A DNA stretch of 32,000 nt from Pirellula staleyi DSM 6068 (GTDB lineage: Bacteria > Planctomycetota > Planctomycetia > Pirellulales > Pirellulaceae), in contig CP001848.1 in the NCBI GenBank assembly GCA_000025185.1, positions 540,001-572,000 on the forward strand, read 5' to 3'. This document shows positions 10,464-25,003 of this stretch, piece by piece (within the stretch, counting starts at the first letter, position 1; each line of letters opens with the position of its first letter). The notes below the pieces were generated by a model. It ran no database searches, was not told where the DNA came from, and worked only from the letters and a program-made list of their open reading frames with translations. The translations under genes were made by a program, and so were the position numbers.

Positions 10464-11183
10464 CTACTTAGGCGCAGGCCAGCGTTTCCCACCATTAAAG
10501 CAGATCTCCTTCAGTTGAGGCAGTGCGTCCAACAAGGCGTCGTATTCTGACGGATAATAGTCATCAGAGAGCCAGAGATATTCCAATTTCTTCAACTGCT
10601 TGAGAGGCAACAAATTACGCCGTTCTTTCGGAAGGCGCACAAGCAGAACAGCAAACTGAAGTTCCTTGAGTGCAGAAAGTGGATTCAATGACTCGACCTG
10701 ATAGCGGGCGCTAATCTGTCCATCGATGTAGATTTCTCGAAGTTCGGGTAGCGTCGAAAGCGGCTCCAGCGAAGTGACTCCCATGGCTTCGCTGACACAC
10801 AGGGAATGCAGCCAATCCATACCTCGCACGAATTCCAGAGACTCCTGTTGCCGATTCCACCCCAACACCAGCGTTCGGAGATTTTTCAGGCAAGCCAACG
10901 AAGGTATGTCTTTGCATTTTGGCAGCGTTAATTTGACATGCTCGAGATTCGGCATACTCGCAAACGCTGGAAGCCATTCTTCATGCAGTGGAGAATGAAC
11001 TCGACGAATCTCTCTAAAGCGTGGAAGGTCGTCGATGTGTTTCGTCTTGCGGTTGAGCCATACAGACCGAACGTCGGACGGCAAGTCTGCGACGTCATCG
11101 CATAAGACCATACCTGGAGGCATTCCCAAGTAGGGAGCTCGATGCGTTGCTGCGAACTCTTTGATGTAATTTCGGGTTGGCAT
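10464..11183 (-). CDS. Leucine-rich repeat protein
   Basis: 239 aa with an ATG start. It has a repeated LxxLxxLxL periodicity (LPNLEHVKLTL, LKNLRTLVLGWN, LPELREIYIDG, LKELQFAVLL, LKKLEYLWLSD). Confidence 0.7.
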   Translation of the reverse strand: MPTRNYIKEFAATHRAPYLGMPPGMVLCDDVADLPSDVRSVWLNRKTKHIDDLPRFREIRRVHSPLHEEWLPAFASMPNLEHVKLTLPKCKDIPSLACLKNLRTLVLGWNRQQESLEFVRGMDWLHSLCVSEAMGVTSLEPLSTLPELREIYIDGQISARYQVESLNPLSALKELQFAVLLVRLPKERRNLLPLKQLKKLEYLWLSDDYYPSEYDALLDALPQLKEICFNGGKRWPAPK

Positions 11184-11194
11184 GCAGCTTCTAC

Positions 11195-11285
11195 GGCGAA
11201 CGGTAGCGGTAACCGGGGCGCCGCCACAAAACTAGGATTTCAAATCCCGCGTTATCGGCGGCTCCGGTTCACCACTTTGTTCTGT
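11195..11285 (-). repeat. attC recombination site, family A-like
   Basis: GGCGAAC (11195-11201) ... GTTCTGT (11279-11285), with central GGATTTCAAATCCC. ORF 11232..11753 reads 54 nt into this site before its stop. Confidence 0.55.
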
Positions 11286-11753
11286 CGCGTTTAGTAACGG
11301 TTTGCATTTAACTTTACATTCAGCGGTCGTCGCCGTTGGATTATAGCCTGGAATTCGGCCAACCAGTTCAGGAAATGCCGAAGTCAAGGCCGCCCACCCT
11401 GCGGTGCGACGATGCATTTCATCGGATGCCAGCAGTGATTGGACGAATGATAGTTCGCATTCAATGTCGGAGCCACGTCGGTTGAGTTCAAGCAGTAGTA
11501 TGTTGGGAGTCAGGCAGGCGGGGTCATGGAGTTCGCCGACCAATTGTTCATCGGTCATGCGTTCAAATCGTCGTGAGATCCACCTAAGGCAGACGATGAG
11601 AGGCATCTGTCCAATCGTCGCACCCAGTACGAATCCGATTGGGATGCCGACAACACAACCAAGTATGCCAAAAGCGTTCCATCCGGTTGATCCGAGAACG
11701 ACCGCGCCACCCACAGCGGCAATCAATCGAATTAGGTCAAACAGGGTAAACAT
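11232..11753 (-). CDS. Membrane-anchored hypothetical cassette protein
   Basis: 173 aa with an ATG start and two N-terminal hydrophobic helices (LIRLIAAVGGAVVLGSTGW, ILGCVVGIPIGFVLGATIG). Confidence 0.6.
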   Translation of the reverse strand: MFTLFDLIRLIAAVGGAVVLGSTGWNAFGILGCVVGIPIGFVLGATIGQMPLIVCLRWISRRFERMTDEQLVGELHDPACLTPNILLLELNRRGSDIECELSFVQSLLASDEMHRRTAGWAALTSAFPELVGRIPGYNPTATTAECKVKCKPLLNATEQSGEPEPPITRDLKS

Positions 11754-11780
11754 GTCATTGACGTGTAAGCGGTCTTAGCG

Positions 11781-11868
11781 ACAGAACGTTCTGCATCGCC
11801 GGCCGCCGCTGGTGATGTGCAATAGTGAAACCAAAGCCGGGACGGCGGTCCGGTGCGTGCGGTTGTTT
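11781..11868 (-). repeat. attC recombination site, family B
   Basis: ACAGAAC (11781-11787) ... GTTGTTT (11862-11868). The central sequence matches sites 8058 and 9657. Confidence 0.6.
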
Positions 11869-11974
11869 GCTGATGAAGTGCAGTTGGACGTTGCCAAATC
11901 GCCATCAACCAAAACAAGCGAAAGACTGCGATGACCATGAGCGATCATCGATTGGGAAAACCGCCGATCGGCGA

Positions 11975-12475
11975 CTACGGTCTATCGGTTGGTTCGTCGA
12001 CATTTTGATTCGAGTCACTTCGCAGTTTTGGAATAAGGTACCACAGAATATAGCCAGAGTCGATCAATTCACCGGCATCACACGAAGCCTTGATTGTCGA
12101 ACGGAGTTCCACAGAGTCAGCAAAGCCATATTTGGTTTGTAGTACATGGCGGGCAAATCTCTCCATGCGATAGAAATCGAGCCCATCAATTTGTCCATGT
12201 TCGCCAAAATCGAAGTCAACGCTGAATTCCGGTGTCTTGACAGCGCATCCAAAGCCGTGAATGAAGTACTGACCGCCATTCGCCAACTGTCCCATCTGCG
12301 GAACATCGTAGGCGACCCAATCAATCGTCGATTGTGGTCGAGGTATGCCTATCGCCTCTAAAGATTCGACCGCATATCGAACCGCGTCCTGATAGTCATG
12401 GATCAATCGAATCAACCGAGCGTCAATTGCAACTGCTCCCGTCGAAGAACAACTTGTATACAGAACTCTACACAT
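11975..12475 (-). CDS. Hypothetical protein (last recognisable cassette ORF before the recombinase remnant)
   Basis: 166 aa with an ATG start. QYFIHGFGCAVKTPEFSVDFDFGEHGQIDGLDFYRMERFA resembles a DUF-type family I recall seeing among immunity-like genes. This is unverified. Confidence 0.6.
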   Translation of the reverse strand: MCRVLYTSCSSTGAVAIDARLIRLIHDYQDAVRYAVESLEAIGIPRPQSTIDWVAYDVPQMGQLANGGQYFIHGFGCAVKTPEFSVDFDFGEHGQIDGLDFYRMERFARHVLQTKYGFADSVELRSTIKASCDAGELIDSGYILWYLIPKLRSDSNQNVDEPTDRP

Positions 12476-13053
12476 TCCTCTGAGGGCGTATTCTGCTTAT
12501 CTCGGGGGGTAGTGTCAACGAAAGTCAAGAAAGGTGCGATAGGCTCCAACTTATCCCGACTTCTGCAAAATCTGGATGATCTAGAATCGTCTTAATTCCT
12601 CCGTCCCAATACCGCGAACTATGGCTTAGCTGCCCACATTTACAGCAGCAGGACTTCGACGCAGGTCGCTGATCTGCACCGACCGGAAAGCCGATTCAAT
12701 ACCCTCTAACTGGTAGTGCTCGTCTTGATCGACGTTTTTCGTCCGGCCGTCAGCACCACGTAGTACAGCTTGTCGGTTCCCAGACGGCTCACCGGTCTCT
12801 GCCTGATCTTGCTCACCACCACTCGATCACCCGGTCGACAGCGATGCACTTCCCCCCAGAACTTCCTTGACCATGCTCGTCGCCTCCTAGAGTTTGCTTT
12901 CTATCTGTCTGAGTAACCGCTTCTTTTCAGCGGACTGGCGTGCTTCTCGTTTCGCTTCCCGCTCCTCGGACTTTTCAATCATCTGCTGCAGTTTCAGCAG
13001 CACGGTTCGCTTGCCATGGTCATGTGCCTGCAGCTCGAGCAATCTTTGTCGTG

Positions 13054-13383
13054 ACGCATCGAGTCTCCAAGGTTCTGACGCTAATTGGAAAAGCAGCTGG
13101 CATCGAGGTGCAAGCCGCTGTCGGATCCCCTGCGGAGCGGCCCCAGAAGACACGAGGAGCTCCGACCAAACAGGAGACACGCAGCAGCAGTTACCATCCC
13201 CCGAAGTATGCCAGTGCCCACGATCTCCGCCGCACGTGTGCTGACCGGCTGGAGGAGGCAGGAGTTGACCCGCTGGTGATTGCCCGGATCATGCGGCACA
13301 AGAGCTACGAGACCACGCGTCGATTCTATGCCACGGGGAATGTGCAGCGGGATGCTCGGAGGCTGCACGAGGTACTGACCGGA
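13054..13383 (+). pseudogene. Tyrosine recombinase, C-terminal catalytic fragment only (possible decayed integron integrase)
   Basis: In track ORF 12940..13509, LIGKAAGIEV...SAHDLRRTCADRLEEAGVDPLVIARIMRHKSYETTRRFY carries the HxxR box and the H...Y box of tyrosine recombinases. No N-terminal or core-binding domain is visible upstream in any frame. Confidence 0.6.
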
Positions 13384-13499
13384 TTGACGACGGATGATAA
13401 ACTTAGGGGGCTCAGATTGATAGCGGAAAGCGATACTCGTCACAGGTGGTCACAGTTGAGGTCACATCCCGCCATCGAATTTGACGTAAGTCCTTATCT

Positions 13500-13572
13500 G
13501 CCCTGGTAGCTCAGAGGATAGAGCACCGGTTTCCTAAACCGGTGGTCGTGGGTTCGAATCCCGCCCAGGGTA
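13500..13572 (+). tRNA. tRNA-Arg (anticodon CCT)
   Basis: Hand-folded cloverleaf. Acceptor GCCCTGG/CCAGGGT, D stem GCTC/GAGC, anticodon stem CCGGT/ACCGG with loop TTCCTAA, T arm GTGGG-TTCGAAT-CCCGC, discriminator A. No CCA is encoded. Confidence 0.9.
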
Positions 13573-13574
13573 CT
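13524..13574 (+). repeat. attL (direct repeat, inside the intact tRNA)
   Basis: CACCGGTTTCCTAAACCGGTGGTCGTGGGTTCGAATCCCGCCCAGGGTACT is identical to 23227-23277. Confidence 0.9.
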
Positions 13575-13732: not shown

Positions 13733-15226
13733 ATGGCACGCATTGCAGCAGAAGAACGCCAACTCTCCTACCACGAAAAGGGCCGCTGCTGGCGAAAGTT
13801 CTATCGTGGGAAGATGCACTACCTCGACCCGCGAGGAATCAGCAAAAGCGACGATGCCAGCTATCGGCAAGCCCTACGAAATTGGGAGCAAAAAAAGTTA
13901 GCAATCGACCTAGAGGAAGCGAGCCAGAACGCACCCTCGACCATTACGGCCCTGAGGCTCGCTGAAACCATCAAGCGACTTCCTACCCCCGACCTCGAAA
14001 GCCTAGGACTCGACCCGAGCACCATTGCTGCCTTGAACGTAGAAGCAGCCATGAGGGGACAGCCCGAGGGCTCACTAAATTTCGGCCCCCGACAAACCAC
14101 AATCGCCGGACTTGTCGACGCTTACATTTCGGCAAAACGGGCTCTAGCCAATGCAGGGGCAATCTCGCGGCAGATGCTTATTGAATACGAACACAACGCA
14201 CGTTTTTTCGGGGAGTGGGCAACGCAAACCGGAACCATTCATACCGACAGCATTGATTCGGGATGCCTTGAGCGATACCGCCAATTCATCCTCAGGCTAA
14301 AAAATCCCGCGTTTGCCAAACGAGCAGAGACAGCACCACTGGGAAGACTAACGATACGCAAGAGACTTGCACGCCTCAAAAGCTTGATCGAATGGGCCTA
14401 CGAAACGGAACAACTCGCGATGCTCCCCCGCAACCTAAAGGGACTCGCGAAGCTCCGACTCGAAAACCACGAAGAGGCGGAGAAAACCGCAGACGAATTG
14501 TTCTGGACCGTCGAAGAGGTTCGGGAGCTATTCGCAGCAGCAACCCAGCGAACGAAGCTCTACATTTTGCTGGCCGTGAACTGCGGTTACACCCAAACCG
14601 ACATCGCCACGCTTCGCCATGCCCACATCGACTGGCAAACGGGAGTTATCTCGCGGCCCCGACACAAGACAAAGGGAAAGCAAGTTCACAAGCTATGGCC
14701 CAGCACGCTGGAGCTACTCAAAGCCGAAGCCACGAAGCCAGACAAGAAACAGCAAAGCAGCGGGCTTGTTCTGCTGGGGGAAAACAGACTACCCCTGCTC
14801 TACCACTCTGACACGACCACATCAAAACAAGACACTATCCGACTCGCTTTCTCGGTACTCCTTAAGTCGCAAATCAAGAAGCGACTCAGGGAGTCCTCGC
14901 CCGAACTGTTCAAACTGGCCAAAAGAGCCAGCAGCACCATGAGCAAGGAACAACTGAACGAAATCAAGCGAGAGCAGAAAAGGCGGGCCGATCAAATAGA
15001 TGCAGCAATCAAGGAAGCACTAGCAAACGAGTCTCGCACGTTCAAAAGCTTCAGGAAGACCAGTGCAAACCTAATAGAGAGGCAATTCGGCGATGGAAGC
15101 AAACTTGCCGATCAGTTTCTAGGGCACACCCAAAAGGCAACGAAGCGATTCTATGTCGACTCTCACTATGAAAGCCTGTTCACAGCTATTGACTGGCTAG
15201 GAGAGCAATACGGGCTTGCTGAGTGA
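13733..15226 (+). CDS. Tyrosine-type site-specific integrase
   Basis: 497 aa. The C-terminus FRKTSANLIERQ...ADQFLGHTQKATKRFYVDSHY carries the R...HxxxxxxxxY catalytic pattern. It lies next to the attL/tRNA junction. Confidence 0.85.
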   Translation: MARIAAEERQLSYHEKGRCWRKFYRGKMHYLDPRGISKSDDASYRQALRNWEQKKLAIDLEEASQNAPSTITALRLAETIKRLPTPDLESLGLDPSTIAALNVEAAMRGQPEGSLNFGPRQTTIAGLVDAYISAKRALANAGAISRQMLIEYEHNARFFGEWATQTGTIHTDSIDSGCLERYRQFILRLKNPAFAKRAETAPLGRLTIRKRLARLKSLIEWAYETEQLAMLPRNLKGLAKLRLENHEEAEKTADELFWTVEEVRELFAAATQRTKLYILLAVNCGYTQTDIATLRHAHIDWQTGVISRPRHKTKGKQVHKLWPSTLELLKAEATKPDKKQQSSGLVLLGENRLPLLYHSDTTTSKQDTIRLAFSVLLKSQIKKRLRESSPELFKLAKRASSTMSKEQLNEIKREQKRRADQIDAAIKEALANESRTFKSFRKTSANLIERQFGDGSKLADQFLGHTQKATKRFYVDSHYESLFTAIDWLGEQYGLAE

Positions 15227-16135: not shown

Positions 16136-16382
16136 AAGACTGCGGAGAAGCTACGGCCCCGCTTTCGATACCCCGACTTAATACCCTGTAAATCATTGGT
16201 TGCGTGTAGGGCTTGCCGTCGAAATTGACTTTCCCCATTGAATTCAAGAGCCCTGCTTGCTCGACCTGGGGAATTCCTTGTTCAGTCCACTCTCGCAAAA
16301 GCGGCAAAACATCTTGATAGTATTCGATTGCCTGTTGGGTACGCCGAAGCCCTGCAAGTTTGCGACGACTGATTGCTTCCAT
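16134..16382 (-). CDS. Small DNA-binding-like protein
   Basis: 82 aa. LLNSMGKVNFDGKPYTQPMIYRVLSRG resembles the LN..G..t..G..W....v..IL motif that I recall from the recombinase domains of serine recombinases. A sigma70-like promoter lies upstream. Confidence 0.55.
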   Translation of the reverse strand: MEAISRRKLAGLRRTQQAIEYYQDVLPLLREWTEQGIPQVEQAGLLNSMGKVNFDGKPYTQPMIYRVLSRGIESGAVASPQS

Positions 16383-16440
16383 TAGAAGACCTCACATTAA
16401 AGAGAGTGGCGACAGCGGGTCGCAAGAAGGTTAATTCATC

Positions 16441-16468
16441 AATATAACATGACTTAAATAGTCGTCAA
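16441..16468 (-). promoter_or_regulatory. Sigma70-like promoter for the 16382<-16134 / resolvase-like gene pair
   Basis: On the minus strand: TTGACG (16463-16468), 16 nt spacer, TATATT (16441-16446). Confidence 0.55.
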
Positions 16469-16519
16469 CGCAATTATTGCAACAAATATAATGTTTTCTC
16501 TCTCAATAGTGCATCTCAG

Positions 16520-16528
16520 TGTTATAAT
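16520..16528 (+). promoter_or_regulatory. Extended -10 element (TGTTATAAT) for the plus-strand cargo module
   Basis: TGT-TATAAT at 16520-16528 in an AT-rich divergent intergenic region. AGGAG at 16550-16554 lies 9 nt before the ATG at 16564. Confidence 0.5.
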
Positions 16529-16563
16529 ACTAAGATATTTAACACTCACAGGAGACCCACATA

Positions 16564-17115
16564 ATGACAGAGCAGCTACTAACAACAGAGGCAACGCAAC
16601 TACCAATTGAAAGCCCTCAGGCGGAAGGCTTGACAGCAGAGGCTTCGAGTCTACCCAAGCAGTACAGCGAAGCGTATCGAATGAAGTTGGCGGGGTGTTC
16701 GATGCAAGAAATCGCCGACAGCTTCAGCGTAGACAGAACGACAATCTGGCGATGGTGCCAGAAAGTAGAAGCAGAAGCTCAGGCACAGATTGCAAACGAG
16801 CCTGTTTTCAATATCATCGTGCGAGAACTGGCAAGACTGACCGACCTAGAGGAACAAGCTCGCACCGCAGCTGAAAACGCTAAGTCAGATCGTGCGAAAG
16901 CAATGTATATCAGCGAAGCAAGGCGGGCCGCTGTTTCTCGGCAGTCCCTGCTGCTCTCGACTGGCATCATTCCGAAAGTGCCCGACCAGATTTTCAGAGT
17001 CACAGCTACAATGAAACCCAGCGACCAGCAAGAACAGCCAGTCGAGCGACTGAACCGCGAAGAGGCAATCGCACAGATCATCAGCAGGATGCAGCATTCC
17101 CAGTTCGTTACGTGA
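16564..17115 (+). CDS. HTH-domain protein with a coiled-coil C-terminal half
   Basis: 183 aa. YRMKLAGCSMQEIADSFSVDRTTIWRWCQKV is a clear helix-turn-helix, and the rest is helical. The organisation recalls small terminase or regulator proteins, but this is not resolved. Confidence 0.7.
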   Translation: MTEQLLTTEATQLPIESPQAEGLTAEASSLPKQYSEAYRMKLAGCSMQEIADSFSVDRTTIWRWCQKVEAEAQAQIANEPVFNIIVRELARLTDLEEQARTAAENAKSDRAKAMYISEARRAAVSRQSLLLSTGIIPKVPDQIFRVTATMKPSDQQEQPVERLNREEAIAQIISRMQHSQFVT

Positions 17116-17213
17116 GTGCAATCGATTGGAGAAAGTCAGATTGCGAGAGTACTGCACTTGGCAATTGCATTCCCCCCTATCACTACTACAATTAGTGACT
17201 ACGGGACATTCCT

Positions 17214-18473
17214 ATGCAGCGATCGAAGCAGCTTGAGTTTTTCAACATGAGTAACGACGAAACGCGAGAAGAGAGCGAAGCAGAGTCGCCCCCCTCAATC
17301 ACTCCTCAGAAAAAAGAGGGAGCGAAGAAACCTTCTCCAAAAAAGAAATCCAGCGGCAAAAAGATCGAGGCTCCACCGGAAGTGAAGCCAAAGGAAAAGG
17401 CAGCCAAGTCACCCAAGAAGAAGGGCAAGGCTACTGCTCCATTTTATTGGACGTTCCCTAAAAACTCGCTTGAAGACGCACTTCTTGTTGCGAGGGCCAT
17501 TGAGGACAAGCACGCTGGCAATCCGATGCGGGCTGCGGACTTAGCTAAGGCAGTAGGCTACAATCTCCCATCCGACTGGCGATACCTGGACCTACTGAAA
17601 TCTGCCAACCAATATGGATTGGTGTCTGGCACCGGGCAACACGCCACCGTTTCATTGACCGAGATCGGACAAGATGTAGTTGCCCCTAGCTCGCCCCAGC
17701 AGCGACAACAGGCACTACTGAAGGCATTTCGCAACGTCGACGAATTTCGTCGAGTCGAAGACTTCTACAATGGGAAGAAGATTCCAGAGGATGAGTTTTT
17801 TGAGAACACGCTGGTTCGAGAGTTCTCGATCCCACGCGAGCGAATCAAGCCATTCATAAACGTATTCACCTCGAACCTCCGCTTCCTTAACTTGTTCAAT
17901 CCCCGTAGATCGGAGCAAGTCGAACCAACCTCGGTGACCTACCCGCCGACTACGCCACAGCCCTCAGACACGGAATCGAATGCGGAATCGACACGGGTTC
18001 GAGAGTTCCTAGACACCTGTTTCATGATGATGCCTTTCGGCACTTGGTTCGACAAGTATTACAAAGAAATCTTTGCACCCGCAATAAAGGACGCTGGATT
18101 TGAGCCAATTCGGGGCGACGAAATCTTTACAACGGGGACCGTCGTTGAGCAAATATGGGAGCAAGTACAGAAATCGACTGTTTTGCTTGCAGACCTCAGC
18201 GATAGAAACGCTAATGTGTATTATGAACTTGGGCTCGCTCACGCGGCTTCTAAGCCTGTAGTTCTTACCGCATCCAAAATCGAGGATGTGCCATTTGACC
18301 TACGACACCTTCGAGTAATTGTTTACGACGTTCGAGAGCCTGAATGGTCTGTAATGCTCCGCAAGAGCGTTACAGAGTACCTCAAAAACGCAAAGGCGGA
18401 CCCTGCAAGAAGCATACCGCAGCCTTTTCGCAATTCAACGCAGCTACTTGGCAAACAACCCCTCACACCTTAA
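17214..18473 (+). CDS. Three-part protein: Lys/Pro/Ala-rich basic tail, winged-helix-like middle, C-terminal nucleoside 2-deoxyribosyltransferase/TIR-like domain
   Basis: 419 aa. Residues about 30-75 read KKPSPKKKSSGKKIEAPPEVKPKEKAAKSPKKKGK. The C-terminus CFMMMPFG...VLLADLSDRNANVYYELGLAHAASKPVVL...PFDLRHLRVIVYD matches, from memory, the PF05014/PF15891-type fold motif (xPF...D...N.yyElG.A.a.gKPv). Confidence 0.7.
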   Translation: MQRSKQLEFFNMSNDETREESEAESPPSITPQKKEGAKKPSPKKKSSGKKIEAPPEVKPKEKAAKSPKKKGKATAPFYWTFPKNSLEDALLVARAIEDKHAGNPMRAADLAKAVGYNLPSDWRYLDLLKSANQYGLVSGTGQHATVSLTEIGQDVVAPSSPQQRQQALLKAFRNVDEFRRVEDFYNGKKIPEDEFFENTLVREFSIPRERIKPFINVFTSNLRFLNLFNPRRSEQVEPTSVTYPPTTPQPSDTESNAESTRVREFLDTCFMMMPFGTWFDKYYKEIFAPAIKDAGFEPIRGDEIFTTGTVVEQIWEQVQKSTVLLADLSDRNANVYYELGLAHAASKPVVLTASKIEDVPFDLRHLRVIVYDVREPEWSVMLRKSVTEYLKNAKADPARSIPQPFRNSTQLLGKQPLTP

Positions 18474-18492
18474 GACTAGAAGACTTTTTTCC

Positions 18493-18753
18493 ATGAGAAG
18501 CAATAGCGATTATGGGCTAGAGCGTTTTGTTCGAGCCGCCCACAAGATGCTTAACGACCCTGCACGTTATGGCGTGAATATACTGGATGTTTACCTCTCA
18601 GTGTGGAGCAATGAGGCAGCAATTGAATCGTCACAAAATATTGCTAGGCAAGCCGCTGAAAGGGGATACATTGTTATCAAGAAGAACAGTCAAATGATTG
18701 ATAGCGTAACGCCTAGCGGGCTGGAATTCATTGGCATCACAAATGCGGGTTAA
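18493..18753 (+). CDS. Small hypothetical protein, downstream partner of the 419 aa protein
   Basis: Track ORF 18448..18753 trimmed to the ATG at 18493 (MRSNSDYGLERF...), 19 nt after the upstream stop. The C-terminus GYIVIKKNSQMIDSVTPSGLEFI looks like a winged-helix wing. Confidence 0.55.
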   Translation: MRSNSDYGLERFVRAAHKMLNDPARYGVNILDVYLSVWSNEAAIESSQNIARQAAERGYIVIKKNSQMIDSVTPSGLEFIGITNAG

Positions 18754-18830
18754 ACCGACGAAGCCTGAAATCTGGCACCGCCCTCTGTCTGTTCGAAACC
18801 TACTTTTCTGCTATTCCTAGAACTTTTTAC

Positions 18831-19415
18831 TTACACCGCTGCTAGATACCGAATGACGGTGCGGCGGGAGACTCCTAGAGCAGTAGCAATCTCTGTGTGA
18901 TTCAAGCCCCGACCTAGTAGCTTCTTTGCTCTGTCGGGTGTGCTTTTGGTAGTTCCTGACTTTCGGCCCCGATACAGTCCAGCCTCTTTAGCTGCTTCGA
19001 TGCCCGCCTTTTGGCGTTCTCTACGGGTTTCCTGCTCCATCTCTGCTACTCCCAGCAGTACCGCAGCGAGCATTTTCCCCACAGTGCCGCTAAAGTCGAT
19101 TTGCTGAGTCACAGAGACGACCCGCAAGCCTTTCTCGCACCAATCGCATAGAACGTTGATTCCGTCGCGTAGCTTGCGAGAGAGCCTATCTAATCGCCAG
19201 ACGACCACAGCACCAACTTCGCCCCCGAAGATAGCTTGCTGAAGCTCGGTAAAGGCGGGGCGGTCGAGTGTGTCGCCTGTTTCCTTGTCTACATACCATC
19301 GAACAGAATCAGGGGGCACCCCATTACCGATCAACCACTTTCGCACCTCCCGCCTCTGTCCTGCTTCGTTCTGACCAATCGTTGAAACTCTGATGTAAAT
19401 TGCTGTTGCTTTCAT
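18831..19415 (-). CDS. Serine recombinase (resolvase/invertase family)
   Basis: MKATAIYIRVSTIGQ (catalytic Ser motif), VVVWRLDRLSR, E-helix MEQETRRERQKAGIEAAK, C-terminal HTH GLNHTEIATALGVSRRTVIRYL. The ATG at 19413-19415 is preferred over the TTG at 19427. Confidence 0.9.
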   Translation of the reverse strand: MKATAIYIRVSTIGQNEAGQRREVRKWLIGNGVPPDSVRWYVDKETGDTLDRPAFTELQQAIFGGEVGAVVVWRLDRLSRKLRDGINVLCDWCEKGLRVVSVTQQIDFSGTVGKMLAAVLLGVAEMEQETRRERQKAGIEAAKEAGLYRGRKSGTTKSTPDRAKKLLGRGLNHTEIATALGVSRRTVIRYLAAV

Positions 19416-19711
19416 CGTAGGCACCAAACTAGAGAAAGGTTTCGAAGTGTGCGTTTAGAGTATACGCTTTCTGTCTCAGTTTCAGCAAATCGAAAGCACT
19501 CTGTTTCCAAGCTGTTTTCAAGTCTGAGTCACAGAGAATCGCCCGACACCCTAATTGTCACAGCTGAAAGCTCGATTGCTCGATTCGACCCGACTTCCGA
19601 CACTTTGCCACTACCCTGGCAATTGCCATCCAACAAGTGCACAATTCCACACGATTGGAGTCGGGCCGAATTGGGGACAGAACACCCAAGAGAAGAGAGA
19701 TATAGGGAGCA

Positions 19712-23158: not shown

Positions 23159-23226
23159 CTCATCTACACTAAAAACCCGAATCGAGCCTAAATTCTAACA
23201 TATTAGATAGTTATGTCAAGCACAAA

Positions 23227-23277
23227 CACCGGTTTCCTAAACCGGTGGTCGTGGGTTCGAATCCCGCCCAGGGTACT
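23227..23277 (+). repeat. attR (displaced 3' portion of tRNA-Arg)
   Basis: 51 bp identical to 13524-13574. The upstream tRNA half is absent. Confidence 0.9.
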
Positions 23278-23419: not shown

Positions 23420-25003
23420 TTAGTCACCCAAAAGTCCGCCACCGATATTGGGAAGAACGTTGGGTACACTGGGGACGACGTTTGGAACATTCGGTACCTG
23501 GGGGACAACATTCGGCACAGCAGGGACTGCTCCAGGAACTTTGGGTACAACACCTTCTACTGCCTCGGTCGCTCCGGATGTCAAACCTTTCACGACAGGG
23601 AGTGCTTGGTTGGTCGCTGGAGCCAAGGCGGCTGTTGCACGAGGTAGTTTGAGTGCGGTGCTAGGTAGCTGAACGGCTGTTTTGGTAGCTGTATTAAGAT
23701 CTACCGCGCCAGCTGCTGAGTTCACCTTCAAACGATCGGCGGTAACCAGATCGAGTTGTTTGAGATTGGCATCAAGTGCCACTCGCTGATCGGCTGAGAC
23801 TGCGACAAAACCTTGGGGGTTGGTCGAACGCAGTAGATCGATCGGCTGTCCGAGGACCGAATTCACCGCTCCACCTGCCACGCCCGCAACCTCGGGCAAC
23901 TGAGCTTGCTTAGCCAAATCCACAGCTGGCCGCAAAGCCTCATCGGCTGCGATTTTTCCGAACGAAGCAGCCGATTGCTTCAGGAAATCGACCCCTTCTG
24001 AGGCCTCGCGCCACACACGAAACGAAAGGACAGGATCGACCACTCCACGTGTCGCTGCCACTGTGTGCCAAGGTTGAATCCCCAGTTCACGGAAGTTGTC
24101 GCCATAGTAGTCACCGAACAAATAGGTACTAGCTCCTGCGCGAACAAACAAGTGATTCGCTAATACGCTGTTATTAATGGCCACACTAGGAGTGAATCTG
24201 AGTGCAGCTCCATTTGTGCGTGCACCCGCTGCAATACGAATCGGCGCGAACAACTGTCCGCGAATCGATAGTGGGTAATCCCAATAGCCCGGCACATAAA
24301 CATAACCGGCTGATGTGGCTACATAATGCGATGGGACCCACAAATAGCCCCGTTGATAGGGAGCCCACTGCCCTGCATGCCAACGATAGTCGTTATTATA
24401 AGGTTCCCAGTACCCAGGAATCCAACATTGATTATTGTCGATTGCTGGCGAACTTGGACCATTATCGAGCGATTTAGGTGGTCGTTTATAAAACCCTAAC
24501 TCGGCGTCGCTAGCTGCCGCCCAAAATCCGCTATTCCATTGATAGCCCCCTTCCACTTGGGCCCACACACCAGGGACCCAGCGCATGCCGGGTGGAGCCG
24601 AACGCCAGGCACCGGTGATCCACAAAAAGTCGTTGGTGGCTTCATCCCAGGCCCAGTAGCCCGGCGCCCAAATCATGTTGTTCCCTGCAGGTCGCACCGC
24701 CGGGGGAATCTCGTCGATGTCGGCTGGTGGCTCTGTTGGGATAACCGCGCTGGGTGCTGCGTTGAGCTGAATCTGCTGCAGGAAAGCTTCGTGAACCGGA
24801 CCTCGCAGTACGGCGCTGAACTGCGCATCGGCGTCAACGGTTGCTTCAGCTGCGGCGTCTACCTGGGGGGCCACTTCGTCTTGCGCGGGGGTTGCTGGCA
24901 CTTTTGTTTGAGCCTGCACGCTCTCAGCGGCGACCCATCCGGTTACCACAAGGGCCGCAACGCCAAGACCTGTTCCTACCATCTTCAGTTTTGCCATCTT
25001 CAT
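23420..25003 (-). CDS. Secreted YXWGXW-repeat protein with a Val/Pro/Asn-rich C-terminal tail
   Basis: 527 aa. Signal peptide MKMAKLKMVGTGLGVAALVVTGWVAAESVQA. Repeats PGYWAWD, WVPGVWAQ, GYQWNSGFW, IPGYWEPY, YRWHAGQW, YVPGYWDY. Tail VPKVPGAVPAVPNVVPQVPNVPNVVPSVPNVLPN. Confidence 0.85.
   Translation of the reverse strand: MKMAKLKMVGTGLGVAALVVTGWVAAESVQAQTKVPATPAQDEVAPQVDAAAEATVDADAQFSAVLRGPVHEAFLQQIQLNAAPSAVIPTEPPADIDEIPPAVRPAGNNMIWAPGYWAWDEATNDFLWITGAWRSAPPGMRWVPGVWAQVEGGYQWNSGFWAAASDAELGFYKRPPKSLDNGPSSPAIDNNQCWIPGYWEPYNNDYRWHAGQWAPYQRGYLWVPSHYVATSAGYVYVPGYWDYPLSIRGQLFAPIRIAAGARTNGAALRFTPSVAINNSVLANHLFVRAGASTYLFGDYYGDNFRELGIQPWHTVAATRGVVDPVLSFRVWREASEGVDFLKQSAASFGKIAADEALRPAVDLAKQAQLPEVAGVAGGAVNSVLGQPIDLLRSTNPQGFVAVSADQRVALDANLKQLDLVTADRLKVNSAAGAVDLNTATKTAVQLPSTALKLPRATAALAPATNQALPVVKGLTSGATEAVEGVVPKVPGAVPAVPNVVPQVPNVPNVVPSVPNVLPNIGGGLLGD

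Follow-up and report, generated by a model that had tools for sequence, protein, structure and literature searches.

We propose that one gene in a 32,000-nucleotide stretch of the Pirellula staleyi DSM 6068 genome (contig CP001848.1, positions 540,001 to 572,000; hereafter the window, to which all coordinates refer) is a credible candidate for a single-gene immune system. The gene, an open reading frame (ORF) of 419 aa at 17214 to 18473 on the + strand, encodes a basic tail, a winged helix (WH) and a C-terminal domain resembling nucleoside 2-deoxyribosyltransferase (NDT), and we refer to it as WH-NDT. It is the main recognisable cargo of a 9.7 kb integrative island. A sequence-only reading had presented it as half of a two-gene conflict module with a small partner; the "module" is in fact one gene, because neither the small ORF that follows it (Psta_0448) nor the helix-turn-helix (HTH) gene that precedes it accompanies any homolog.

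The WH-NDT family is large, widespread and wholly unannotated. A word-based search returned more than 1,087 sequences with the same architecture at 57-72% identity, an exhaustive search gave 367 representatives of the family at E<1e-30, and metagenomes yielded more than 541 loci. Judging from these homologs, over 1,000 in number, from the metagenome loci and from two strongly conserved globular blocks, the architecture lies far beyond chance. The family ranges over Planctomycetota, Bacteroidota and the Alpha-, Beta- and Gammaproteobacteria, with a patchy distribution in which a handful of named genomes stand among more than 1,000 sequences. In the protein database, a 408 aa "hypothetical protein [Pirellula staleyi]" matches the product of 17214-18473 at 100% identity. 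The 419 aa ORF at 17214 (+) had been described correctly by the sequence-only reading, and the motifs that it quoted are present in the protein (the codon of E338, discussed below, lies at 18225-18227), but the true start is probably M12, at 17247, for a product of 408 aa, because the NCBI protein has that length and the aligned methionine is nearly invariant across an alignment of 52 homologs. Residues 1-11 are matched by a counterpart in just one of the homologs displayed in this alignment, which is also the basis of the figures given below for the tail, the globular blocks, the linker and invariant residues.

The C-terminal domain (aa 263-406; 18000-18431, +) is the better conserved of the two blocks, with a mean pairwise identity of 76%, and the structural model, Foldseek and profile searches all point to an NDT/DNPH1-like (ThsI-type, "CMP-hydrolase-like") Rossmannoid domain. 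Modelled alone, it reaches a predicted local distance difference test (pLDDT) score of 88.6 and a predicted template modelling score (pTM) of 0.82, and shows alternating strands and helices round parallel strands. Among the 81 PDB entries that Foldseek matched to it at E<=1e-3, the highest-ranking are NDT (8pqq, 6.5e-6), DNPH1 (8rpt, 3e-5), Rcl (4fyh) and the CMP N-glycosidase BcmB (4jen, 1.6e-4). Normalised to the target, the TM-scores of the NDT, DNPH1 and BcmB matches are about 0.5-0.7, and the model superposes on the flavodoxin-like alpha/beta fold of NDT and DNPH1. The NADase TIR domains of TIR-STING (7un8, 1.2e-4) and SPARTA TIR-APAZ (2e-4) also match, at TMq 0.5-0.59, and rank under NDT/DNPH1. 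The NDT and TIR folds belong to one superfold. The NDT/TIR-like Rossmannoid assignment made from the letters alone is supported by the PDB matches. TIR-family profiles (TIR, TIR_2, ThsB_TIR and CAP12-PCTIR_TIR) gave no match to the window protein at E<=1 or to the 52 homologs at E<=0.1.

The best match in a sequence profile search of the PDB was Rcl/DNPH1 (E=0.012), for which HMMER pairs NANVYYELG with SLGVGYELG. The glutamate of the GYELG motif in Rcl/DNPH1 is the catalytic nucleophile, and the placement of a catalytic glutamate in the YELG position, already suggested by the sequence-only reading, agrees with this alignment. All 52 members share the residue in question, E338, without exception, and the same holds for D302; in the model of the domain, E338 opens a helix (domain residues 79-90) after the third strand, and two-domain relatives with just 29-35% identity retain the ELG motif. 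We regard E338 as the putative nucleophile of the domain. The beta1 segment, "FxxxPFG", presumably corresponds to the beta1 motif of NDT and Rcl, which it resembles, with the beta1 tyrosine of NDT/DNPH1 apparently replaced by an invariant phenylalanine (F270) in this family. Among distant two-domain relatives (P0154, 384 aa, and P0171, 471 aa), one has an arginine in place of the conserved glutamate (FYRLGLAH), and the other is apparently frameshifted in the C-domain; both may be inactivated copies.

The exhaustive search, covering 1.84 billion representative proteins, returned 22,704 matches at E<=1e-3, of which 8,018 reach E<=1e-10; the majority share the C-domain only. Short matches of 140-280 aa were considered as "C-domain-only" architectures and rejected, their sequences being truncated or mis-started copies of the WH-NDT gene. 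Other settings of the domain include proteins of 240-300 aa arranged as basic tail, domain and helical extension (a 35 kb viral contig encodes one of them), proteins in which it is fused to a ThsB1-like TIR (PADLOC E=6e-61), the phage families phrog_3634, 10872, 26406 and 16139 (the window protein matches phrog_3634 at 2.3e-25), and plasmid proteins named "TRAFs-binding domain-containing". One phrog_3634 protein, the 216 aa gp47 of Staphylococcus phage P630 (L018, 4001-4651), lies reversed inside the replication module, an arrangement typical of prophage-borne accessory or defence morons.

The plasmid proteins lead to a named system. Type VIII Thoeris consists of a ThsB TIR that produces cyclic ADP-ribose (cADPR) and an effector, ThsI, annotated "CMP hydrolase and TPR", and has been experimentally validated from Yersinia and from a Pseudomonas scaffold (10.64898/2025.12.03.692087). 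Using the published Yersinia ThsB sequence as a query, we located type VIII operons on plasmids. In E. coli pKMi029_2, a TRAFs-binding/TPR-S protein is followed, 5 nt downstream, by a ThsB homolog that shares 56% identity with ThsB from the validated type VIII system of Yersinia; the cluster also holds a second TIR gene and a DUF4231 gene. The window protein aligns with the N-terminal domain of this TPR-S protein at 33% identity (BLASTP E=1e-16; hhalign probability 97.8%) and with an Agrobacterium plasmid counterpart beside TIR genes at 40% identity (E=4e-21); the motifs CF.MMPFG, NANV.YELG..HA and PFD..LR are common to its C-domain and the ThsI-like proteins. Judging from their architecture and the adjacent ThsB homolog, these plasmid proteins are probably ThsI. 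Because the alignments and the beta1, Glu and PFD..LR motifs are shared, the C-domain is, on sequence grounds, a ThsI-type effector domain. On the Agrobacterium sp. MA01 plasmid (L019, 454-7326), the ThsI-like protein is clustered with two TIR proteins, a QueC-like "7-cyano-7-deazaguanine synthase", a "DNA lyase", a carbohydrate kinase and DUF4231, in what resembles a composite TIR-signalling island.

A second link to immunity comes from PDLC00733, a PADLOC model for an effector of cyclic-oligonucleotide-based antiphage signalling systems (CBASS), which is matched by 52 of 52 members at positions ~260-372 (best E=9e-11). We considered that the "TIR" label of this model might come from an N-terminal TIR and rejected the idea, as TIR-NDT fusions match positions 260-356 only and the labelled domain is NDT-like. 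The claim that the protein resembles no named defence system thus holds for the architecture as a whole, which no PADLOC model fits, but not for the C-domain, which is homologous to ThsI, PDLC00733 and phrog_3634.

The N-terminal globular domain (aa 77-228; 17442-17897, +), with a mean pairwise identity of 67%, was modelled by AlphaFold2 with a pLDDT of ~98 as a winged helix followed by an extension of five helices. Foldseek found MarR/HosA, BpsR, SmtB and AF1382 at probabilities of 0.9-1.0, with every E-value above 0.01, and AF1382 superposes with a root-mean-square deviation of 3.2 A over 74 residues. The domain has the alpha1-beta1-alpha2-alpha3-beta2-beta3 order of the winged-helix fold, in keeping with the winged helix that the sequence-only reading had recognised. 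It has zero Pfam matches in all 52 members and no PDB sequence match below E=0.5 in a profile search, and tblastn found no relatives in phage and plasmid collections. The domain appears specific to the WH-NDT family, and we regard it as a putative sensor or nucleic-acid-binding module.

Before this domain lies a disordered tail (aa 12-76; 17247-17441, +; pLDDT <50), which in the window protein is acidic first and Lys/Pro/Ala-rich after. The basic character noted from the letters alone is a family trait: in all 52 members the tail carries a net positive charge, with a median of +5.5 and an isoelectric point (pI) of ~10.2, while its length varies from 12 to 150 aa and its sequence is not conserved. 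This conserved positive charge is a hint of nucleic-acid binding. The Pro/Thr/Ser-rich flexible linker between the two globular domains (aa 229-262; 17898-17999, +; pLDDT <50 over aa 236-274) is constrained to 28-38 aa and variable in sequence.

The genomic neighbourhoods give the picture of an accessory, horizontally mobile and solitary gene that is enriched near genes of mobile elements and immunity without being confined to them. Toxin-antitoxin genes, transposases or recombinases often lie beside it. In eight annotated long contigs, the WH-NDT gene stands alone, with an upstream spacer of 140-450 nt and wholly different neighbours, among them SymE and antitoxin genes, DUF3800, DUF4747, an IS200-type transposase, AAA_15, an ImmA-like peptidase, ParE, HipA and IS21; PADLOC models matched about 10 of the 71 neighbours in these contigs. 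When 80 further metagenome loci were added and the ORFs within 4 kb of the gene were clustered, the 1,045 ORFs of 79 loci held no universal neighbour. The largest clusters were an integrase-like protein (5 loci), a paralog with an NDT-like domain (4) and serine recombinases (3, window included). The commonest Pfam family in the 148 nearest neighbours was TIR_2, with five members, followed by Resolvase with three and by Methylase_S, AAA_13, AAA_21, SMC_N, Y1_Tnp and several metabolic families with two each; the rest of the families shown were singletons, mostly housekeeping.

The paralogs deserve separate mention. A protein with NDT-like and TIR domains begins 81-90 nt downstream on the same strand at L069 (1879-2757) and L077 (6074-6955) and is convergent, 31 nt away, at L057 (3733-4629); at L075 (2658-4298), a 547 aa protein with SIR2-like and NDT-like regions, the former recognised solely by GAGFS..TTNFD..MHGD motifs, begins 127 nt downstream. 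These four paired loci may represent a two-gene subtype or hetero-oligomeric partners. Near a betaproteobacterial homolog (L011, 3378-5399 and 10173-13121), we observed a fusion of GAF, guanylate cyclase and caspase (Peptidase_C14), an AAA_15 protein and a 982 aa protein; the PADLOC matches to PycC, caspase, GajA and MzaA models among the pooled neighbours probably come from this locus, which resembles a defence island. Serine recombinases recur beside genes with NDT-like domains, in the window (18831-19427, -) and at L020 (5720-6304), L030 (5989-6546) and L049 (3245-5167). One, on a Hymenobacter plasmid, overlaps the end of a distant relative and is followed by a NACHT protein; another adjoins the type VII/VIII Thoeris cluster of E. 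coli pKMi029_2. This recurrence could reflect simple carriage on mobile elements.

On balance, we favour with moderate confidence a model in which the window protein is a solitary sensor-effector immune protein, directed against phages or other mobile elements and carried as island cargo, that would degrade nucleotides or NAD+ when triggered. The tail and the winged helix would anchor the protein to nucleic acid or sense a cue from the invader, and binding or crowding would bring the C-domains together. Enzymes of the NDT/TIR superfold are active as dimers, filaments or higher oligomers. Clustering of the C-domains would lead to N-glycosidic cleavage of an essential nucleotide, either NAD+ or a nucleoside or deoxynucleoside monophosphate, and depletion of this metabolite would keep the invader, and probably the infected cell too, from completing its replication. 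No dedicated partner gene would be needed, and at a minority of loci the protein could cooperate with an adjacent TIR- or SIR2-fused paralog. Swarozyc, retron Ec86, TIR-STING and SPARTA may serve, by analogy, as precedents for these steps; TIR-STING and SPARTA are activated by assembly into filaments or tetramers. A bolder version, which we consider quite improbable, holds that the linker-histone-like tail and winged helix load the N-glycosidase onto invading nucleic acid, where it would either excise bases from the polymer, modified phage bases perhaps among them, or become active only once it is lined up on foreign DNA. To our knowledge, neither activity has been described for the NDT/DNPH1 fold.

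Several observations weigh against the solitary sensor-effector model. The full-length architecture is absent from 50,697 phage records, 72,556 plasmids and IMG/VR contigs. Many homologs lie in housekeeping neighbourhoods, the remaining neighbours in the eight long contigs being plain metabolic genes, and the neighbour counts given above come without a matched background control. In three Sphingomonadaceae genomes (L002, L004 and L023), the gene lies immediately upstream of a convergent thiC, with flanks of 80-85% DNA identity, which suggests stable vertical inheritance in that clade, and the identity of the C-domain across phyla is unusually high for an immune gene. The winged-helix domain is near-neutral, with a pI of ~8, and DNA binding by it is putative. 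As for the enzyme itself, the window protein scores 15.4 bits (E=0.021) against PF05014, for which the gathering score is 28.8 bits, and although 51 of the 52 members match this family (best E=1.8e-4), all fall below the gathering score; the fold assignment and the placement of the glutamate are supported, and formal Pfam membership is not. The chemistry of ThsI, to which one would look for the substrate, has been proposed as a hypothesis only, namely manipulation of the nucleotide pool (10.64898/2025.12.03.692087).

Among the alternatives, the one put forward by the sequence-only reading was that the gene forms a two-gene conflict module with the ORF that follows it; such a module could be, for instance, a toxin-immunity pair, perhaps regulated by the HTH protein. 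The layout in the window invites it: the small ORF (18493-18753, +) does begin 19 nt downstream, as had been stated, though it encodes 86 aa rather than 87, the HTH gene lies upstream, all three genes are on the same strand, and a scan found no intrinsic terminator-like site on the + strand in the spacers flanking the WH-NDT gene. The comparison with other genomes, however, speaks strongly against it. The small ORF, Psta_0448 of P. staleyi DSM 6068, is an orphan whose sole match among 5.8 billion proteins is itself and which has no Pfam, PADLOC, NCBIfam or PHROG match. Neither it, the HTH gene nor any other island protein was found near WH-NDT homologs by tblastn of 23 homolog loci. The clustered ORFs of the 79 loci include no recurrent small downstream gene, and the gene downstream of the homologs is variable, convergent or distant. 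As a feature of the family, the two-gene module is essentially refuted and has next to no chance of being right; it could survive only as a strain-specific arrangement. A conserved non-coding element or terminal repeats were also looked for as common companions, and the 2.5 kb flanks of 15 loci, compared by blastn, had nothing in common except the Sphingomonadaceae synteny; a non-coding RNA around the WH-NDT gene was likewise set aside, Rfam finding the tRNA only.

Three other explanations keep the single gene and change its function. The protein might be a signal-responsive DNA-binding regulator, silencer or adaptor in which the NDT-like domain receives a nucleotide-derived immune signal, as SLOG does in ThsA, perhaps partnering TIR or SIR2 proteins. 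We consider this unlikely, even if a basic tail joined to a winged helix, high conservation and a stable locus in some clades would suit a regulator, and even if TIR_2 is the most frequent neighbouring domain and the C-domain is fused elsewhere to TIR and SIR2-like enzymes that could supply the catalysis. In ThsI and in the CBASS model, the C-domain is the sole candidate effector; the partner domain in ThsI is a TPR-S sensor, and the rest of the CBASS profile is not shared. Moreover, the invariant glutamate at the nucleophile position and D302 are what one expects of an enzyme, and most loci have no nearby TIR or cyclase as a source of signal. About as unlikely, in our opinion, is a nucleoid-tethered nucleotide N-glycosidase with a housekeeping or stress role outside immunity. 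DNPH1 sanitises the aberrant nucleotide 5-hydroxymethyl-deoxyuridine monophosphate (hmdUMP) and provides a model for such a role, the nearest solved structures are DNPH1/Rcl, NDT and BcmB, and the thiC synteny, several metabolic neighbourhoods and strong sequence conservation fit it. It sits poorly with the patchy distribution, the carriage of the gene as island cargo in the window and the unrelated neighbourhoods in nearly all genomes, and the nearest relatives of the C-domain in sequence are immune effectors and prophage morons rather than metabolic NDTs. Finally, the winged helix and tail could place the NDT-like domain on DNA for directed base excision, perhaps of modified phage DNA, an idea that draws on the covalent joining of a DNA-binder-like tail and winged helix to an N-glycosidase fold and on the direct contact of the NDT-like domain of retron Ec86 with DNA. 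However, we know of no member of the NDT/DNPH1 fold that acts on polymeric DNA, DNA-repair or modification genes are not linked to the gene, and the C-domain is acidic, with a median net charge of -3, so that this option is the least probable of the three and very doubtful.

The island that carries the gene is well defined. Perfect 51-bp direct repeats at 13524-13574 and 23227-23277, both on the + strand, bound the 9.7 kb integrative element. The left repeat (attL) is the 3' 51 nt of an intact tRNA-Arg(CCT) (13500-13574, +; ARAGORN; Rfam tRNA 69.7 bits), and the right repeat (attR) holds the 3' half of the tRNA only. ARAGORN also called a second tRNA-Arg(CCT) at 23200-23277, which we rejected in favour of attR, as only its 3' 51 nt match and Rfam gives a partial tRNA at 33 bits. 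Together with a tyrosine integrase (13733-15226, +; Pfam Phage_integrase E=1.5e-9), these tRNA-Arg(CCT) repeats confirm the mobile setting that had been proposed. Beside the integrase, the other genes that can be recognised on the island encode two HTH proteins and, convergent with the WH-NDT gene, a small serine recombinase of the resolvase/invertase type (18831-19427, -; Pfam Resolvase 1e-30 and HTH_7). The HTH protein immediately relevant here (16564-17115, +; 183 aa; Sigma70_r4_2 E=5e-5) lies upstream on the same strand, and the DNA before it is AT-rich, with 30% GC at 16450-16549; both points agree with the sequence-only reading. A promoter scan of 16300-19500 found promoter-like sites no commoner than in shuffled sequence, and none in the upstream spacer of the WH-NDT gene.

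Around the island, a 189 aa ORF (12940-13509, +) that ends where the tRNA-Arg begins matches the Phage_integrase profile in its C-terminal part only (positions 125-167 of 172, E=1e-7) and is probably a remnant of an older integrase or of an element on the other side of the tRNA. Outside the island, 10464-12475 (-) and 23420-25003 (-) encode a leucine-rich repeat protein, a 173 aa unannotated ORF, a DUF6896 protein and a 527 aa protein with WXXGXW repeats. Farther to the right lie genes for a rhodanese, a metallo-beta-lactamase-rhodanese and a pyridine-nucleotide-disulphide oxidoreductase, which resemble a sulfur-metabolism cluster.

As to what is new, neither the domain types nor the sensor-effector logic are without precedent, and ThsI is a named relative of the effector domain. 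For the winged-helix domain, the tail-WH-NDT architecture and the stand-alone status, we found no description in the domain libraries or the literature searched. A one-gene protein with a built-in sensor would offer a handle on what the ThsI-type domain cleaves and on how it is activated and, if it proves protective, would be a compact single-gene addition to the defence catalogue. In addition, the adjacency to TIR- and SIR2-fused paralogs hints at cooperation within the family of NDT-like domains.

The WH-NDT protein can be compared with several known systems, each of which shares a part of it. DNPH1/Rcl, NDT and BcmB are the best structural matches, with the YELG glutamate aligned to that of GYELG, but they are single-domain metabolic proteins that have neither the tail nor the winged helix. 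The CBASS model PDLC00733 ("Effector, TIR") matches every family member, although only ~93 of its 388 profile positions do so and its N-terminal part, presumably a signal sensor, is not shared; Pfam, PADLOC and NCBIfam matched no CD-NTase cyclase in the island ORFs scanned. The NDT-like effector of retron Ec86 (Retron-Eco1) dimerises, contacts multicopy single-stranded DNA (msDNA) and depletes adenine derivatives. It is comparable as an immune effector with an NDT-like domain and catalytic Glu and Asp residues, working as a dimer or filament under regulation by DNA contact, but it requires a reverse transcriptase and msDNA; no reverse transcriptase domain was found in the island ORFs scanned, and Rfam, which lacks some retron RNAs, finds the tRNA only.

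ThsI has a homologous catalytic-type domain, at 33-40% identity, and both it and the window protein are carried on mobile elements. The two differ in what surrounds this domain: ThsI has a TPR-S/TRAFs-binding sensor and an adjacent gene for a cADPR-producing ThsB TIR, whereas in the window protein a basic tail and a winged helix precede the catalytic domain on its N-terminal side. Neither it nor the 52 homologs match TPR-S or MAP3K_TRAF_bd, which the ThsI-like proteins do match, and neither the scanned ORFs of the island nor the eight annotated homolog loci include a TIR gene. In Swarozyc, a DUF4062 TIR-like NADase is paired with an HTH/winged sensor, which binds to the phage portal (bioRxiv 10.64898/2026.05.01.722283). 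DUF4062 (PF13271) itself gave no match to the window protein at E<=1 or to the 52 members at E<=0.1, and the order of the domains is reversed. Nevertheless, both proteins join an N-glycosidase of the NDT/TIR superfamily to an HTH or winged helix in one polypeptide, and Swarozyc spreads through horizontal gene transfer and acts alone.

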